A stretch of 64,000 nucleotides of DNA from Rhodospirillales bacterium (GCA_022823235.1 JAJDXO010000059.1:45393-109392); one strand, 5' to 3'. Positions 11,953-39,699 are shown, counted from the first letter of the stretch. The notes: generated from the sequence alone by a model not told the origin. Numbers and translations: made by a program.

Positions 11953-12024
11953 TCATGCCCCGCCTTCGCGCGGGGCATCCAGGCCTTCATTTCTGGATCA
12001 CCCGGGCATAGCCGGGTGATGACG
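11953..12024. repeat. REP-like double-hairpin intergenic element (family copy 1)
   Basis: Hairpin ATGCCCCGC/GCGGGGCAT (11955-11978) followed by TGG-ATCACCCGG-N6-CCGGGTGAT-GACG (11997-12024). The same architecture recurs at 38866-38948. Confidence 0.5.
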
Positions 12025-12041
12025 ATGGAAGGAAGCCAACG

Positions 12042-12074
12042 AAAAGCCCCGGTTTCAACCCGGGGCTTTTCTTT
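12042..12074. terminator. Bidirectional intrinsic terminator between boxB (+) and the NUDIX gene (-)
   Basis: 11-bp perfect stem AAAAGCCCCGG / CCGGGGCTTTT with a 7-nt loop. The A-run and T-run flanks give a U-tract in both orientations. Confidence 0.6.
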
Positions 12075-12077
12075 CGC

Positions 12078-12512
12078 CTAACGGCCGCGCGTGATCTGCT
12101 TTTCGGCGAAGTCGCGGATCAGCTTGCCGAGGTCCTTTTGATCGACGGCACGCTCGGCTTCTTCGGGACGGTACCAGGCCCGGTCACGCTGTTTCGATTC
12201 GGGAAAGACATCGGCTTCATGGACGACTTCCATGGGATAGACCCGGACGCGGCAGATATCGCCGCCCTTGTCATCGCGCTTGGTATAGACGTAGGAGCCG
12301 ATGGACCGGCGCCCGATGGCGCCCGTGAGCCCGGCCTCCTCGAAGGCTTCGAATCGCGCCGTCTCGCGGGGCGTCAACCCCGGTTCGATGTGCCCCTTGG
12401 GCACGATCCAGCGCCGCGAGGTGCGCGACGTGATCAGCATGCATTCCACGGCGCCGTCGACGACCCGATACGGCAGGACGCCCACCTGCCGGACCAACGA
12501 CAGATTGATCAT
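12078..12512 (-). CDS. NUDIX hydrolase
   Basis: Nudix box region PKGHIEPGLTPRETARFEAFEEAGLTG. Start set to ATG 12512, which has GGAGGG 7 nt upstream. Confidence 0.8.
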   Translation of the reverse strand: MINLSLVRQVGVLPYRVVDGAVECMLITSRTSRRWIVPKGHIEPGLTPRETARFEAFEEAGLTGAIGRRSIGSYVYTKRDDKGGDICRVRVYPMEVVHEADVFPESKQRDRAWYRPEEAERAVDQKDLGKLIRDFAEKQITRGR

Positions 12513-12701
12513 CGCGCGGCCCTCCGGTTTCGGCGAGCGCACCGCCCGGAACCCAATTCCAGCGCCGCATACACGGTTTGTACGGACATCATCCGATCCC
12601 TCCCAGGCAAGCCATTTTCCGGCGGCCGCGGCCCGTTTGGACCCTGCGCGCGGCCGGTGATGACTACCAAGTATCCATCAGGTCATTAAAATGACATTAA
12701 A

Positions 12702-12719
12702 CTGTAACATTTCTGTTGA
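12702..12719 (+). promoter_or_regulatory. Pho-box-like direct repeat CTGTAAC-ATTT-CTGTTGA upstream of the PiT transporter
   Basis: 7-4-7 arrangement resembling the CTGTCAT-N4-CTGTCAT PhoB site, about 70 nt upstream of ATG 12789. The adjacent near-palindrome GTCATTAAAATGAC is at 12682-12695. Confidence 0.3.
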
Positions 12720-12788
12720 CCTCTGCGCCAATGCGGGCCAAACCCAGGTTATCGGAGCCTGGGTCCGATTGTCAGCAAAGGGACACGT

Positions 12789-14318
12789 ATGAGCCTGTCG
12801 CCCGATCCCCCCGACCCTGGTTCCGGACTCACCAAAAAGACCACCATCGACAAAGATCTCAAGCGTATCGTTCAGCTCGAGAAGGCGACGAGCCGCATAT
12901 CCCAGCGAAACCTGAATCTGGGCTTCGGGCTCCTGTTCCTGCTCGGCGTTTGGCTGTTCACCTTCTTCCAGGCCGGCAGCGGCGCCAATATCACCATCAT
13001 CTCCATCGCCGCCATCATCGGCGGCTACATGGCCATGAATATCGGGGCCAACGACGTCGCCAACAATGTGGGACCGGCGGTGGGCTCCAAGGCCCTCACC
13101 CTTCTCGGCGCCCTCGCCATCGCCGCCGTATTCGAAGCGGCGGGCGCGTTGATCGCCGGCGGCGAAGTGGTCACCACCATCTCCAAGAACATCATCAATA
13201 CCGAGGCGATCGCCGATCGTTCCGTATTCGTCTGGGCGATGATGTCCGCCCTCCTCTCCGCCGCCGTGTGGGTCAACCTCGCCACTTATGTGGGAGCGCC
13301 CGTCTCGACGACGCACTCCATCGTCGGCGGTGTCATGGGCGCCGGGATCGCGGCCGCCGGGATGGCCTCGGTGAACTGGGTGATCATGGCGCAGATCGCC
13401 GCCAGTTGGGTCATCTCGCCGGTGCTCGGCGGCGTGATCGCCGCCATATTCCTGGGCTTCGTCAAATTCGCGGTGCTTTACCGCGAGGACAAGATATCCG
13501 CCGCCAAACGATGGGTGCCGGTGCTGGTCGCCATCATGGCCTGCGCATTTTCGGTGTATCTGGTCATGAAGGGCCTGAAGCGGATCTGGAAGCCGGAGGC
13601 CGAAATCGTCGCGGCCATCGGCGCAATTGCCTTCATCGGAACCTATCTCATGGTCAAGGCGCGCGTCGCCCGGGCCGCCGTCCATCTGGAAAACCGCCGG
13701 AAATCGGTCGGCGATTTGTTCACGGTCCCGCTGATTTGCGCCGCCGCGCTGCTGTCCTTCGCCCATGGTTCCAACGACGTCGCCAATGCGGTCGGCCCTC
13801 TGGCGGCGATCGTCAGCGCGGTGGGCGGCGGCGAGGTCGGCGCCAAAGTGACGCTGCCGCTCTGGGTCCTGGCCATCGGCGCGGTGGGGATTTCAATCGG
13901 CCTGCTGCTGTTCGGTCCGAAGATTATCGAAATCGTCGGCGAGAAAATCACCAAGCTGGACCGGGTGCGGGCGTTCTGCGTCGCCCTGTCGGCGGCCATC
14001 ACCGTGATTGTCGCCTCGACCCTGGGACTTCCGGTGAGCTCCACGCACATCGCCGTCGGCGCGGTGTTCGGCGTCGGCTTCCTGCGCGAGTTCATCACCA
14101 ACCGGCGGGTCAATATTCCGCAGCCGCGCGCCGTGGGGGCCGCGCCGGTGCTCGACCCCAACTACAGCGGCTCCCATCGTTCCTGGACCAAGGCGCGCCA
14201 GCGGAAGCTCGTCCGCCGCCGCCACCTCATGACCATCATCGCCGCGTGGCTGATCACCGTCCCGTCGTCCGCCTTACTGGCCGCCGTGATCTTCTGGTTG
14301 ATTTCCGCCGTGGTCTAA
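12789..14318 (+). CDS. pit: Inorganic phosphate transporter, PiT (PHO4) family
   Basis: 509 aa, polytopic, with duplicated signature GANDVANNVGP / GSNDVANAVGP. Confidence 0.9.
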   Translation: MSLSPDPPDPGSGLTKKTTIDKDLKRIVQLEKATSRISQRNLNLGFGLLFLLGVWLFTFFQAGSGANITIISIAAIIGGYMAMNIGANDVANNVGPAVGSKALTLLGALAIAAVFEAAGALIAGGEVVTTISKNIINTEAIADRSVFVWAMMSALLSAAVWVNLATYVGAPVSTTHSIVGGVMGAGIAAAGMASVNWVIMAQIAASWVISPVLGGVIAAIFLGFVKFAVLYREDKISAAKRWVPVLVAIMACAFSVYLVMKGLKRIWKPEAEIVAAIGAIAFIGTYLMVKARVARAAVHLENRRKSVGDLFTVPLICAAALLSFAHGSNDVANAVGPLAAIVSAVGGGEVGAKVTLPLWVLAIGAVGISIGLLLFGPKIIEIVGEKITKLDRVRAFCVALSAAITVIVASTLGLPVSSTHIAVGAVFGVGFLREFITNRRVNIPQPRAVGAAPVLDPNYSGSHRSWTKARQRKLVRRRHLMTIIAAWLITVPSSALLAAVIFWLISAVV

Positions 14319-14412
14319 CCGCCATGCCGCCGGCCGGAGGTTTTACGGCAATCAACCTGGCCACGGTGGTCCGGTATGGTGTAGGACCCCCCATACCGCT
14401 GAGATCAGACCC

Positions 14413-14946
14413 ATGTCCCTTCGATCCTCCCCCGCCCGGTACGGTTCCCTCGCCCAAGGCCTGCACTGGCTGACCGCGCTGCTGATCGTCTGTTTGTTCG
14501 TCGCCGGCAATATCATGGACGACTTGGCGGCCGGCCAGAAGCTGACCGTCTACCGGGCCCATGCCGTCGGCGGCATCACAGTGCTGGTGCTGACCCTCAT
14601 CCGGCTGATCTGGCGGTTCATCGACCGGGACCGCCCGGAACTGCCGGCCGACATGTCCGGGCCCATGCGCTTCGCCGCGCGGGGCGCGCACTGGCTGATT
14701 TATCTGTTGATGCTGGCCATCACCGGCTCGGGGATAGCCACGCTGATCATGAGCGGCCTCGGCGAGATCCTGTTCATGGGCGCCGGCCGGCCGATCCCCG
14801 ACCGCATCGACGTGCCGCCCATGGACGCCCACGAACTGTTCGCGACGCTCCTGATGTGGCTCCTGTTCCTGCACGTCGCCGCCGCCCTCTACCATCACTA
14901 CTTCCGCAAGGACGGCGTGCTGCGCCGGATGATGCCCGGACGCTAG
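14413..14946 (+). CDS. Cytochrome b561 family protein
   Basis: 177 aa with 4 TM segments, conserved His residues (GLHWLTALL, AHAVGG, GAHWLIY, LHVAAALYHH) and the C-terminal RKDGVLRRM motif. Confidence 0.8.
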   Translation: MSLRSSPARYGSLAQGLHWLTALLIVCLFVAGNIMDDLAAGQKLTVYRAHAVGGITVLVLTLIRLIWRFIDRDRPELPADMSGPMRFAARGAHWLIYLLMLAITGSGIATLIMSGLGEILFMGAGRPIPDRIDVPPMDAHELFATLLMWLLFLHVAAALYHHYFRKDGVLRRMMPGR

Positions 14947-15256
14947 GAACCCGTCCCCTCTGGACTCCGAAACCCGGTCGGGGGTAGGATTTTACCTGCG
15001 GCTGCATTGGCCTGCATGTACCAAGGAGGGTAGGTAACTCTATGAATGAGACCGGCTCCTGTACCGCCCCCGGACGACGGGGGCACCGGTAAAGCAGGCG
15101 GCGGACATCCGCCGGACACCGATACAATTGAATATCTAGCTGATCGACGCGCCGTCGTGCCGTCGACATAGAGTTTCCGGCTTATCCGCTGGAACCGAGC
15201 GAAATGCGAAACATAGCGCCCCGCCGGGACCCCCCGGCGGGGTTCGCGCGTTACGC

Positions 15257-15916
15257 CTACTCCGCCGCTTGGGCTTTTTCCCCCACCCCGTTGGCCCGAA
15301 GCGCCGCAAGGGTATCCTCGGCCGACAAGGTAAACCCGAGCGCCGTCGAGATGCAGAGAAGCGCGGCTTCGTGCTGGGCCTCGCCATCCATGGAGCCGAC
15401 GCAATCGGTCACCACGATCGGCAGGAAGTCGAGTGTATTGGCGGCGGCCGCCGTGCACAGCACGCACGAATTGGTGTTCACCCCGGTGAGCAGCAGCGTG
15501 TTTATGTCACGCGACCGCAACGCGAATTCCAGGTCCGTCGCGAAAAAGCAATCCTTCCGCTTCTTGGTATCGATGACCAGATCGCCGTCCGCGTAGAGTC
15601 CGGGCATGATCTCCGTGCCGGGCATGCCCTGAAGGTTGTGGCGGAACTGGTTTGCGCGAGTGTCGCCCGCCCGATCGGCCTTGGTGCGCCAAAAGGGATT
15701 ACCCGCCGTTTCGGATGGATCCCGGTATTGGGACACCACATGAATGATGGGAATGCCGAGATCGCGGCAGGCATGATTGAAAGCTTCGTTTGATTTGGTC
15801 ACCGCGTCGGCGACTTCGGGCGGCGCCGGCAGGGTCGCCACCTCCATATCCATGTGCCCGCGATGGAGATCGATGGCGACCACGGCGGGCCGCACGTTTT
15901 CAAGACCGAGATTCAT
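15257..15916 (-). CDS. Isochorismatase-family cysteine hydrolase
   Basis: 219 aa with AVVAIDLHRGH and LLLTGVNTNSCVLCTA (catalytic Cys context). Confidence 0.8.
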   Translation of the reverse strand: MNLGLENVRPAVVAIDLHRGHMDMEVATLPAPPEVADAVTKSNEAFNHACRDLGIPIIHVVSQYRDPSETAGNPFWRTKADRAGDTRANQFRHNLQGMPGTEIMPGLYADGDLVIDTKKRKDCFFATDLEFALRSRDINTLLLTGVNTNSCVLCTAAAANTLDFLPIVVTDCVGSMDGEAQHEAALLCISTALGFTLSAEDTLAALRANGVGEKAQAAE

Positions 15917-16023
15917 GGTTCGCCTCCTCTCCTATTTTAACCGGGCTTCGATGTGTTGGGGATATCTTTGATCACCGGGGCCGGAAATAATCCCGGCCTT
16001 GACTCTTCGGAGCCGAATGAGAT

Positions 16024-16043
16024 ATCGTAAGAACTCTTACGAT
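16024..16043. promoter_or_regulatory. Perfect palindrome ATCGTAAGA-AC-TCTTACGAT in a divergent promoter region
   Basis: 9-bp arms with a 2-nt spacer, 33 nt upstream of the TauD-like start. A TCGTAA half-site is repeated again at 16054-16059. Confidence 0.25.
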
Positions 16044-16075
16044 CTTTTGGTATTCGTAATCGATGGGAGAGTGCC

Positions 16076-17155
16076 ATGCCCGACGAAGCCGCGGGAATGA
16101 CCGGCCGCACCCGAGGCAGGGTGGTCGCCGGAGAACCGGTCGCCGATATGGCGGCCTGGACCGGCAAGGAGTTCGAAGAGAGCACGGCGTGGCGTTACGC
16201 CGCGACCGGCGGAGAGCTGGATCATCTGGCGGCCATGGCGCGGCGGGTTGCGGCGGGTCTTGACGGCGATCCCAACAAGCTTCTCACCATGCGCGCCGAG
16301 GCCTTCGACCTCGGGCCCTTCGGCGACCGGGTGAGAGACGAGATTCTGCCCCAGGTCCGGGACGGCCTCGGCGTCGCGCTCTATCGCGGCCTGCCGATGG
16401 ACGATTTGACCCTGCTCGAAGCGGCCGTGATCTATTGGGGAATGGGCCAGCATCTCGGCGTCGCGCAGTCCAACAATCCTGAAGGCGACATGATCGGACA
16501 CGTTCTCGATACCGGGAAGGATTACAACGACCCCAAGCACCGGGGCTATCAGACCCGTGCGACCATGGATTATCACTGCGACCAGACGGATTTGGTCTGC
16601 CTGCTGTGCATCAACGAAGCAAAATCGGGCGGGCTTTCGAAACTCACCAGCAGCTATGCCGCCTACAACGAGTTGCTGAGACGCCGGCCCGATCTCGTGG
16701 AGGTCATGCGGCAACCCTATTGCTGGACCAAACACGCCGAGACCAATTCCGGCGAGGACCCCTACTACGAGAGCCCGGTGTTCAACTTCACCGACGGCAT
16801 GCTGTCGATCTCGTTCGGTCCCCAGCACATCATGAAGGGTCACGCCCTGGATGAAGCGCCGGATATCACGCCGGTGCAACTCGAAGGCATTCAGGTGATG
16901 GAAGGAATCGCCGAGGAGATCCACGGCGAAATGGAACTCAAGCGCGGCGACATCCAGTTCGTCAACAACTACACCATCCTGCATACCCGAACGGCATTCG
17001 AGGATTGGCCCGAACCGGAGCGCAAGCGGACCCTGTGGCGGCTATGGCTCAACCTCGACGATTTCCTGCCCCGCACCCCCTATTCCAGGCAATGGGCCCA
17101 GGGGGTCAGCATCGACGGCGCCGGGCAGCGGCTGGAACTGGTTTATCCCGGCTAA
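16076..17155 (+). CDS. TauD/TfdA-family Fe(II)/2-oxoglutarate-dependent dioxygenase
   Basis: 359 aa with the HxD facial-triad context MDYHCDQTD and the distal FVNNYTILHTRTAFED segment. Confidence 0.75.
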   Translation: MPDEAAGMTGRTRGRVVAGEPVADMAAWTGKEFEESTAWRYAATGGELDHLAAMARRVAAGLDGDPNKLLTMRAEAFDLGPFGDRVRDEILPQVRDGLGVALYRGLPMDDLTLLEAAVIYWGMGQHLGVAQSNNPEGDMIGHVLDTGKDYNDPKHRGYQTRATMDYHCDQTDLVCLLCINEAKSGGLSKLTSSYAAYNELLRRRPDLVEVMRQPYCWTKHAETNSGEDPYYESPVFNFTDGMLSISFGPQHIMKGHALDEAPDITPVQLEGIQVMEGIAEEIHGEMELKRGDIQFVNNYTILHTRTAFEDWPEPERKRTLWRLWLNLDDFLPRTPYSRQWAQGVSIDGAGQRLELVYPG

Positions 17156-17175
17156 GGCTAGGCGGAGGCCGGAAC

Positions 17176-17466
17176 CTAGACCCCTTCGACGATAATCAGG
17201 CTCCCATCCGCGGCCTTTTGGCGCATCTCCATGACCGGCCTGACCTCATCGGAGCCGTACCAGCGCCTGATCGTCTCCATGTCGTCAAACTCCAGGATGG
17301 TGACCATCACGCCCGGCCACTCGCCTTCGACAACCTCGAATGCGCCGGCGGCGGCTTTCCTGCGCCCGCCATGGGCCGGGATGGTCGGGGCGATCGCCTT
17401 CCTGTATTCGGCGAACAACTCCGGGTCTTTCAGTTCGTGCATCGTATAAACGACATATGCTGCCAT
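17176..17466 (-). CDS. DUF1330 domain protein
   Basis: 96 aa: MAAYVVYTMHELKDPELFAEYRKA...GGRRKAAAGAFEVVEGEW...ILEFDDMETIRRWYGSDEV, matching the DUF1330 pattern. Confidence 0.75.
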   Translation of the reverse strand: MAAYVVYTMHELKDPELFAEYRKAIAPTIPAHGGRRKAAAGAFEVVEGEWPGVMVTILEFDDMETIRRWYGSDEVRPVMEMRQKAADGSLIIVEGV

Positions 17467-17645
17467 CCGTACCTCCTTCGCTGGCGAAGAGACTGTAATG
17501 CAAGGACGACATGGGTGGAACGGCCGCCGGTTACCGCCCCGGCAATGCCCGGCCGCCGTTGGCGCGGATTGTATCTTCGCCTTTACGCGCCGGATTCGCC
17601 TGATTAGGCTTTTGTCCGGATTGTCTGGTGATTGGGAGGTGGTTG

Positions 17646-18767
17646 ATGCCCGACATGCCCTCCATGGAGTCCCTGCTCGGCGTCGAGACCGTCGATGACC
17701 TGCGGGGCCTGGCCCGCGACGACCTTCTCGACGCCCACGCCCGGGCGTGGGATTGGATCGCCGGCCCCGGCACGTGGCTTACCGGCGCCGAGCGCCTTGC
17801 CGTTGTGCGCGAAGTCCGGCAAGCAGCGGAATGCGATTTTTGCCGGGCCCGCAAAGATGCGCTTTCACCCCTCGCGGTCGAAGGAGAGCATGACCATCTC
17901 GGCGAGCTTGACGATGCCTGGGTCGAGGCGATCCACCGAGTTGCAACGGACTCGGGCCGCCTGTCGGCATCATGGGTGGACGGACTGATTGCCGACGGGT
18001 TGAGCGACGGAGCCTATATCGAAATCGTCGGCTTGACCGCAATGACCAAGATGATGGACGCCTTTGCCTGGGCCGCCGATGTTGAACCGCCGCCCCTGCC
18101 CCAACCCAGGGATGGTGCGGCAAGCGGTTACCGCCCGCCCGGTGCGAAGAAATCCGACGCCTGGGTTGCCGTCGTCAAGCTGGAGGATGTCAGTGAAACC
18201 GACGGACCGCTCTACGGCGCGACCGCCGGCGGCGTCCATCAGGCCCTGTCCCTGGTACCCGACAGCAAGCGAGCGTTCTGGGCGTTAGGCGAACCGCACT
18301 ACATCCCCATGGACGAAATCCGCAATACGGACACCCGGGTGCGCGCGATCAGCCGAGCCCAGATCGAGATTTTGGCAGGCAGGACCTCGGCGCTTCACCA
18401 GTGTATGTACTGAACGACCTCGCACGCGATGATGCTCCGTGCGAGCGTCCAGGACACCGGCGCTGAATTCGAACTGACATCTCTGTCCGGGGACGACGCC
18501 AAGGGCACGGTGCCGCACCAGAACCTGTTGCTCGACTTCGCCGAAACGGTGGTTCTCCGGGACCGGGACTCCGCAGCGGCGTTGCGGCCCAAACTGATCG
18601 AGGCACTGGGACCCGCGGGTTATCTCGACGCCTGCGCGGTTGTCGCCGGTTTCCACGGATTTACGCGCATCGCCGATGCATCCGGCGTACCTCTTGATGA
18701 ACGCTATCTCGGCGACGCAGAGGATGTGAAGGCGCAGACAGGGGTGCGGGAATACGACCCGCGTTAG
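17646..18767 (+). CDS. Two-domain AhpD/carboxymuconolactone-decarboxylase-family protein with in-frame TGA (18411-18413), candidate selenocysteine (C-M-Y-U motif)
   Basis: Track ORFs 17628-18413 and 18429-18767 share one frame, and only the TGA separates them. The junction reads ALHQCMY[TGA]TTSHAMML, which is the CxYCxxxH CMD signature. The downstream part looks like a normal CMD C-terminus. ATG 17646 has GGGAGG 6 nt upstream. Confidence 0.6.
18419..18445 (+). other. Candidate bacterial SECIS hairpin
   Basis: 8-bp perfect stem CTCGCACG / CGTGCGAG with an 11-nt G-containing loop, starting 5 nt after TGA 18411-18413. The loop starts about 16 nt from the UGA. Confidence 0.4.
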
Positions 18768-39051: not shown

Positions 39052-39699
39052 TCAGCCGAGGGCCGCGAGATCGGCCAGGGTCTTCTCGGGCTCGGGCCGG
39101 GTGGTGTAGTTCGGGTGAATATCGGCCGCCCGGACAACGCCGGAGCCGTCGATCACCAGCCGCGACGGAATGGGCAGCGTCCAGCTGTCGTCGCCATTGG
39201 TTCCCGGCAGGTCGAGACCGAAACCCTCGTAAATCTTCTTCACGTCGTCCGGCACCTGGAACTTGATGCCGAGTTCGGCGGCATAGTCGTTGCCGGCGTC
39301 GGTGAGGATATCGAAGGTCAGGTCGTGCTTCTCGACCATGGCCTGGGTCTTTTCGGACAGCTGGGGGCAGAGCGCCAGCAAGGTCGCGCCGGCGGCTTCG
39401 ATCTGGTCCTGTACTTCCTGCAAAGCGTACAGCTCCGCATTACAGTAGGGTCACCATTCCCCCCGGTAAACGGTCAGGACCACCGGGCCCTTGGCCAGCA
39501 GATCGGCCGAATTCACCGTCTCGCCCCGCGAATTGGGGAGCGAGAAAGCCGGCAGGGTGTCGCCGGCCTGGATGCAGGTATCGAGGATGCCGGATTCCGC
39601 CAGCTCCTTGGTCGCGGCGCCCATGACGGCCCGAACCTCTTCGGGCATCCGCTTGGCGCCGGCCTCGCGGATGGCGGCAAGTTTTTCTTCTAAGCTCAT
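39052..39699 (-). CDS. Peroxiredoxin-like (AhpC/TSA, PRX_like2-type) protein with in-frame TGA (39451-39453), candidate selenocysteine in a U-P-Y-C motif
   Basis: Track ORFs 39451-39699 and 39052-39423 are in one frame (648 nt total). Read through, the junction is VLTVYRGEW[TGA]PYCNAELYALQEV, which is the FYRGxWCPxC redox motif with the stop at the first Cys. Confidence 0.65.
39409..39432 (-). other. Weak candidate SECIS hairpin
   Basis: On the mRNA, CUGUAC-GCUUUGCAGGAA-GUACAG (6-bp stem, 12-nt loop beginning with G) starts 18 nt after the UGA. It is less convincing than the hairpin at 18419-18445. Confidence 0.25.

Follow-up and report, generated by a model that had tools for sequence, protein, structure and literature searches.

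A TGA codon divides one reading frame into two

The DNA analyzed here, referred to as the window, is a stretch of 64,000 nucleotides from a Rhodospirillales bacterium (GCA_022823235.1, JAJDXO010000059.1:45393-109392), and all coordinates are counted from its first letter. Two open reading frames of the plus strand, 17628-18413 and 18429-18767, lie in a common frame, and only the TGA at 18411-18413 and five sense codons (18414-18428) stand between them. As a preliminary description of the window had pointed out, the junction reads ALHQ-C-M-Y-*-T-T-S-H-AMML, the asterisk being the TGA. This single codon links both frames into one gene of 373 codons (17646-18767, plus strand). The features of the reading frame are as follows.

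17634-17639, plus strand: Shine-Dalgarno-like GGGAGG, read from the sequence, 6 nt upstream of ATG 17646
17646-18767, plus strand: predicted complete read-through coding sequence of an AhpD-related selenoprotein, based on the NF041238 match, tblastn and GC content by codon position
18411-18413, plus strand: in-frame TGA, very probably Sec256; TGA at this column in 80 loci and the window, Cys in the homologues P0026, P0027 and P0032

The probable start is ATG 17646, and a database protein with 98% identity (P0001) begins with the identical MPDMPSME. From there, the read-through product comprises 372 residues including Sec256 and ends at the stop codon TAG 18765-18767. GC content at codon positions 1, 2 and 3 is 0.71, 0.50 and 0.76 on the 5' side of the TGA and 0.73, 0.47 and 0.74 on the 3' side; since these profiles are alike, coding goes on in the same frame. 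The C-terminal part had been given as 118 amino acids; coding does continue past the TGA, over 117 codons. Standard gene callers split the gene, as had been anticipated, into fragments of 255 and 112 amino acids, and databases hold hundreds of entries truncated in this way. The surrounding genes (a TauD-family gene, a DUF1330 gene, an acyl-CoA dehydrogenase and an AMP-binding enzyme) are metabolic, unrelated and located on opposite strands.

The read-through protein belongs to the NF041238 family

When U was replaced by C, the read-through protein matched NF041238, an equivalog model for an alkylhydroperoxidase-related (seleno)protein (AhpD_rel_CFYUT). It scored 429 bits (cutoff 175), residues 24-370 corresponding to positions 2-355 of the 357 in the profile. 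The C-x-Y-U-T motif of the family is found at C253-M-Y-[TGA]-T257. Besides the full-length match and this motif, the window protein shares with the family its length of about 360 amino acids and its CxxU redox motif; the model is named for C-F-Y-U-T while the window has C-M-Y-U-T, and nothing essential differs. NF041238 is listed as a CxxU selenoprotein in a 2026 review, which equates it with the "hypothetical protein 1" of the 2005 Sargasso Sea study by Zhang et al. (PMC13188914). The family is already known and curated, and its selenoprotein status and CxxU motif have been in the literature since 2005, in keeping with the earlier remark that AhpD-like selenoproteins are not new.

AhpD-like CxxU and Prx-like UxxC selenoproteins are among the commonest selenoprotein families in marine metagenomes. 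The AhpD-like 1/2 and CMD-domain selenoproteins of the GOS and Sargasso Sea collections belong to the same superfamily as the window protein, share its CxxU motif, come from environmental Proteobacteria and have been seen beside Prx-like selenoprotein genes. These AhpD-like families correspond to TIGR01926 and PF02627 and are set apart from NF041238 in the 2026 review (PMC13188914). The window protein stays below the Pfam gathering cutoff for the CMD domain (PF02627; 18.3 bits vs 23, residues 226-266), and the Cys homologue P0026 has a precomputed PF02627 hit. TIGR01926 gave 41 bits against a cutoff of 81.8, and on its sequence the read-through protein is classed as a relative of TIGR01926, not as a member.

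The TGA is conserved across homologous loci

A scan of species-representative genomes, made with alignment A2, yielded 80 homologous loci from Rhodospirillales, Burkholderiales, other Alpha-, Beta- and Gammaproteobacteria and a few other groups, with 35-98% identity. Our results showed that TGA occupies the Sec column in all 80 loci and in the window, with no TAA, TAG or Cys codon among them. The tblastn matches pass through the TGA and cover residues 24-370. The window DNA is about 96% identical to L001, a Rhodospirillales metagenome-assembled genome, and about 95% identical to L002. Among the 76 sequences that are readable to their end (75 loci and the window), every one has 114-160 open codons after the TGA and no second disruption; their final stops are mixed (39 TGA, 31 TAG and 6 TAA). 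TGA also terminates many ordinary genes of the window, which indicates that recoding is local and that the genetic code is unchanged. By a rough choice based on GC3, the stop codons of 53 ORFs of the window, some antisense shadows included, are TAG (22), TGA (21) and TAA (10). It is unusual at 63% G+C that TAG is as common as TGA, the gene set being heuristic.

At the protein level, 532 relatives were found. Of the 120 best, nearly all have 234-263 amino acids and end exactly at ...QC[VMA]Y, which indicates that they were cut at the same codon. The sequence 3' of the TGA is annotated in separate ORFs of about 112 amino acids. A search with the C-terminal part gave 582 matches in 1.84 billion cluster representatives; most of the best 150 begin just past the position of the TGA, and none of these 150 is a full-length protein. 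Three full-length homologues, P0026, P0027 and P0032, are rare forms that carry C-x-Y-C-[TS]-x-x-H with Cys at the Sec column. The preliminary description had called for homologues with Cys or Sec at this column that continue through the C-terminal part, and both kinds are present. Together with the NF041238 match and the TGA in 80 of 80 loci, they bear out the proposal that the gene encodes an AhpD/CMD-superfamily selenoprotein in which Sec replaces the second Cys of C-x-Y-C-x3-H. We conclude that the TGA in this frame very probably encodes selenocysteine.

A conserved hairpin follows the TGA

Two stems can be drawn just downstream of the TGA, one conserved in the family and one proposed in the preliminary description.

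18431-18449, plus strand: family-conserved SECIS-like hairpin; GAUGCUC 18431-18437, loop CGUGC 18438-18442, GAGCGUC 18443-18449
18419-18445, plus strand: stem proposed earlier; CTCGCACG 18419-18426 paired with CGTGCGAG 18438-18445, perfect 8 bp, 11-nt loop

In the window, the family hairpin has 7 bp, including one U.G pair, and a 5-nt loop that begins 24 nt after the UGA. Across the family its loop reads CGUG[A/C], the second and third bases being G-U. The region around the TGA can be aligned across the loci without gaps, and codons +8 to +11, CUC CGU G[A/C]G AGC, form the top of the 7-bp hairpin. Almost no synonymous variation was found in these four core codons among 77 distinct sequences: Leu is CUC in 77/77, Arg is CGU in 77/77, Glu is GAG in 63/63 and Ser is AGC in 71/75. 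Other invariant residues nearby use 3-6 different codons each. Across 73 distinct sequences, 91.6% of the cells of the hairpin are paired vs 22-56% in slid controls, 28 cells are compensatory (C-G to G-C, A-U to C-G), and none of 500 shuffles reached the pairing values. Folded alone, the hairpin has -9.3 kcal/mol (z = -1.7) and is energetically unexceptional.

The stem proposed earlier as SECIS does exist in the window, with its 11-nt loop, and starts 5 nt after the TGA. It is not, however, a conserved element: 64% of its cells are paired, as in shuffles, it displays no covariation, and it is seen only in the window and its closest relatives (L001-L003). Its 3' arm overlaps the family hairpin, with which it is mutually exclusive, and in its extended form it is the more stable fold of the window (-19 vs -9.3 kcal/mol). 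The fold of the TGA region taken alone (z = -1.0) is not unusual for a G+C-rich composition. On the aligned sequences, the conserved SECIS-like element lies 12 nt further downstream than the stem proposed earlier; the best-looking hairpin of a single sequence is not the conserved one.

Bacterial SECIS elements have their loop 16-37 nt from the UGA (the bSECISearch range), with a G early in the loop. With a loop 24 nt from the UGA and an early G-U, the family hairpin fits this usual description. Like the SECIS of E. coli fdhF, it lies inside the coding sequence just past the UGA, within 16-37 nt, and carries G-U in the apical loop; the loop G-U of the window lies about 6 nt farther downstream of the UGA than that of fdhF. 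The family hairpin differs from the fdhF element in having no obvious bulged U and no match to an Rfam model. No Rfam family matched the window at gathering thresholds. When E values up to 10 were admitted, the sole hit near the TGA was to a miRNA family, which is meaningless.

In the three genes of Cys forms, the U of the loop is absent, and wherever codon +9 encodes Arg it is CGG, not CGU; the stem is degraded in two of them. The third, which encodes P0026 (L081, 164-1267), keeps a 7-bp hairpin in the SECIS register with the loop CGGGU in place of CGUGA. This hairpin looks like a fossil SECIS left by a recent change from Sec to Cys.

Genes of the Sec machinery adjoin some orthologues

A tRNA scan of the 64-kb window found no tRNA, and tblastn with verified queries from locus L060 found no match to selA, selB or selD in the window. 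Their absence from 64 kb of a genome of about 4.5 Mb says little. Of the 60 homologous loci scanned for tRNAs, 7 have tRNA-Sec at most 10 kb from the orthologue; this type accounts for 7 of the 13 tRNAs detected. selB or selA adjoins the orthologue in 10 of the 80 loci. Sel genes or tRNA-Sec are carried by 10 of the 80 loci, the types seen beside the orthologue being tRNA-Sec, selB, selA and selD. At L060, all of these lie directly 3' of the orthologue (11977-17666): tRNA-Sec, selB (401 bits), selA (580 bits) and a fusion of selD to a pyridine-nucleotide-disulfide oxidoreductase (Ndh-SelD, TIGR03169). By our estimate, a single-copy locus would lie that close by chance in about 0.5% of genomes. 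We infer that Sec is inserted in this organism.

Clustering of the neighbours of 81 loci yielded no conserved partner gene except the Sec machinery in a subset. At L065, a thioredoxin-reductase-like gene lies between tRNA-Sec and selB. A conserved ORF of about 490-600 amino acids occurs near the orthologue in loci of the Burkholderiales type, several of which carry Sec machinery. It is directly downstream in L011, L041, L052 and L065 (about +30 to +1820 from the TGA), about 2.6-4.1 kb downstream in L024, and upstream in L009, L018 and L027. In the one example that was read (L024), it has a CPTC thioredoxin-like motif near its N-terminus.

The probable Sec256 stands at the position of the attacking Cys of AhpD

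The residues of the putative redox centre map as follows.

18366-18425, plus strand: redox-centre signature E241-x11-C253-M-Y255-U256-T-T-S-H260, from the relay spacing and the alignment with PDB 6k40
18366-18368, plus strand: codon of E241
18402-18404, plus strand: codon of C253
18408-18410, plus strand: codon of Y255
18411-18413, plus strand: TGA
18423-18425, plus strand: codon of H260

Alignment A1 shows E241 and C253 without variation and Y255 with almost none, and each of the 77 distinct sequences has both the TGA and H260. All elements of the proton-relay signature Glu-x11-Cys-x-(His/Tyr)-Cys-x3-His can be recognised, with Sec at the second Cys. Published proton relays comprise E118, C130, H132, C133 and H137 in M. 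tuberculosis AhpD and E36, C48, Y50, C51 and H55 in P. aeruginosa PA0269. The spacing in the window protein is identical to both, and its middle residue is Tyr, as in PA0269. In M. tuberculosis AhpD, it is the exposed second Cys from which the attack on AhpC starts, and Sec256 is found at the position of this attacking Cys133; in B. thailandensis AhpD, the first Cys is more important than the second. Unlike AhpD and PA0269, the window protein has Sec for Cys and an additional conserved N-terminal domain, some 160 residues long, that has a CxxC as well, scores below the PF02627 cutoff and has no ahpC neighbour.

Residues 69-190 of PDB 6k40 (D. radiodurans) align with residues 230-351 across the TGA (E = 1.9e-6), CVYCAVSH standing opposite CMY[U]TTSH. 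6k40, 2prr and 3c1l, solved structures of the TIGR01926 type, align with the C-terminal half and gave the best Foldseek matches. They are single-domain Cys proteins of about 190 amino acids, whereas the window protein has two domains and Sec. The structure model used for Foldseek was made for the Cys homologue P0026 in place of the read-through protein itself. AhpD-like structures ranked best, with a target-normalised TM-score of about 0.65 and E = 4e-3, in a model whose catalytic half has pLDDT <60 for lack of full-length sequences.

The N-terminal domain carries a CxxC of its own

One further feature lies in the 5' part of the gene.

17832-17843, plus strand: C63-D-F-C66; CxxC invariant in the family, AhpD Glu/His relay absent

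This CxxC is part of ECDFC (residues 62-66), the Cys codons being 17832-17834 and 17841-17843. ECDFCRARK had been taken for an ordinary copy of the AhpD motif. The CxxC is indeed there, but it is no ordinary copy, as it has no His at +4 and no Glu at -12. Neither alignment A1 nor A2 shows any variation at C63, C66, H82 or H97, and many other residues are invariant too. The N-terminal domain (residues 1-165, window 17646-18140; about 160 residues) is the most conserved part of the protein, and it was modelled with pLDDT 80-97 in P0026. Pfam gave no hit for residues 1-166 and none when the N-terminal, middle and C-terminal pieces were searched separately, and no NCBIfam AhpD model matches the N-terminal half. 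When the halves were compared by hhalign, C63xxC66 fell opposite C253xxU256, though weakly (P = 0.0013, probability 18%), a faint hint in the sequence that they might stem from an internal duplication. The N-terminal domain could bind a metal or provide a second redox site.

A second candidate selenoprotein gene in the window

The preliminary description had mentioned a second gene with the same phenomenon.

39052-39699, minus strand: second selenoprotein candidate, peroxiredoxin-like (AhpC/TSA); TGA 39451-39453 in ...YRGEW-[TGA]-PYC

This gene does show the same pattern, with TGA at a Cys column (WUPYC vs WCPYC): the TGA stands where W-C-P-Y-C has its first Cys, and numerous full-length homologues read WCPYC. 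Close relatives (91-96% identity) are annotated only as the 123-amino-acid part past the TGA. A candidate hairpin at 39419-39439, 8 bp with the loop UGUAC, begins 11 nt past the TGA. Scores of this gene stay below the cutoff of every NCBIfam model. One homologue, P0121, has WWPYC where others have WCPYC or W[TGA]PYC; its TGA was probably translated as Trp by the gene caller, and P0121 is likely a mis-annotated Sec form.

In a scan of in-frame TGA codons over the whole window, a Cys next to the TGA was found in the two known candidates only. The other in-frame TGA candidates were rejected: they are either neighbouring genes that share a frame or shadow frames on the antisense strand.

Discussion

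Our analysis makes us highly confident that 17646-18767 is one gene for a two-domain AhpD-related selenoprotein of family NF041238, in which the UGA is decoded via a hairpin and the product most likely acts as a selenol/thiol oxidoreductase. The main competing view would take the TGA at face value, as a true stop that yields a 255-residue protein and perhaps a separate 112-residue protein from ATG 18429, either in an organism without Sec machinery or as the default outcome at scarce selenium. Gene callers yield exactly these two products, a Met stands at codon +7 in 84% of the sequences, and the window has no sel genes. Against this, the codon is TGA in 81 of 81 sequences while the final stops are a mixture of TGA, TAG and TAA, the stop would cut the AhpD domain and its helix carrying His260 in two, and the Cys forms are single polypeptides. 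The Met is missing at codon +7 in 16% of the sequences, and the conserved AUG is itself part of the hairpin stem. We regard a true stop as very unlikely.

If the gene were a pseudogene in decay, whose Cys codon had suffered a nonsense mutation, just one base change would have been needed (TGC or TGT to TGA), and Cys forms do exist. This explanation is effectively refuted by the same TGA in 80 loci of Alpha-, Beta- and Gammaproteobacteria and other groups at 35-98% identity, by protein-level conservation that continues 3' of the TGA, and by the constraint on synonymous sites just past it. A second disruption occurs in 0 of 76 sequences, and the close relatives have no frameshifts or extra stops; random nonsense mutation had been disfavoured in the preliminary description as well. 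With TGA in 80/80 loci, an open and conserved frame behind it and mixed final stops, pseudogene decay and a two-gene arrangement are both very unlikely. Selenium-independent read-through of the UGA, in which a near-cognate tRNA inserts Trp or Cys or the code is reassigned, would account for the homologue of the second gene that is written WWPYC, as if TGA were Trp. We consider it very unlikely, as TGA ends many ordinary genes of the window and 39 of 76 homologous sequences, and the conserved hairpin and the adjacent tRNA-Sec, selB and selA point to the Sec pathway.

Starting from the observed gene structure, family membership, Sec/Cys column, conserved hairpin and association with the Sec machinery in relatives, a selenocysteine-based mechanism can be proposed by analogy with AhpD. 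SelB and Sec-tRNA(Sec) would read UGA 18411-18413 as selenocysteine, guided by the short hairpin within the coding sequence at 18431-18449. In the AhpD redox centre the second Cys is solvent-exposed and makes the attack; Sec256 would replace this Cys, and its selenolate would attack an oxidised partner or substrate (disulfide, sulfenic acid or peroxide). C253 would then resolve the intermediate to form a selenenylsulfide, which a cellular reductant would reduce, regenerating the enzyme. Neither the window neighbours nor the 80 loci offer ahpC or a conserved partner, so that the AhpD-like cycle and its substrate are drawn by analogy only. With Sec in the place of the attacking Cys, the protein most likely works as a selenol/thiol oxidoreductase.

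Sec in all 80 loci, the rarity of Cys forms, which lack the loop U, and the conserved N-terminal domain could mean that selenium is required for the activity. The protein might in that case be a selenium-requiring enzyme with a second redox or metal centre and not an adaptor that recycles AhpC, which we think unlikely. The fold relatives found by Foldseek include the AhpD-like debrominase Bmp8, suggesting, as one possibility for such an enzyme, the reductive detoxification of an organic or metalloid substrate.

As this family has long been known as one of selenoproteins with a CxxU motif, the redox selenoprotein at 17646-18767 opens no new biological question. What is new is modest: the relocation of the conserved SECIS, the presence of Sec in 80 of 80 sampled species genomes and the frequent linkage to sel genes. 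The main value is for annotation, as callers split the gene and public collections hold hundreds of truncated entries of the family. A UGA followed 21 nt on by GCUC-CGUG-N-GAGC is a sharply conserved in-frame signal, which could serve as a marker to repair such calls. For the organism itself, the two candidates suggest that this Rhodospirillales genome is likely that of a Sec user with at least two redox selenoproteins.
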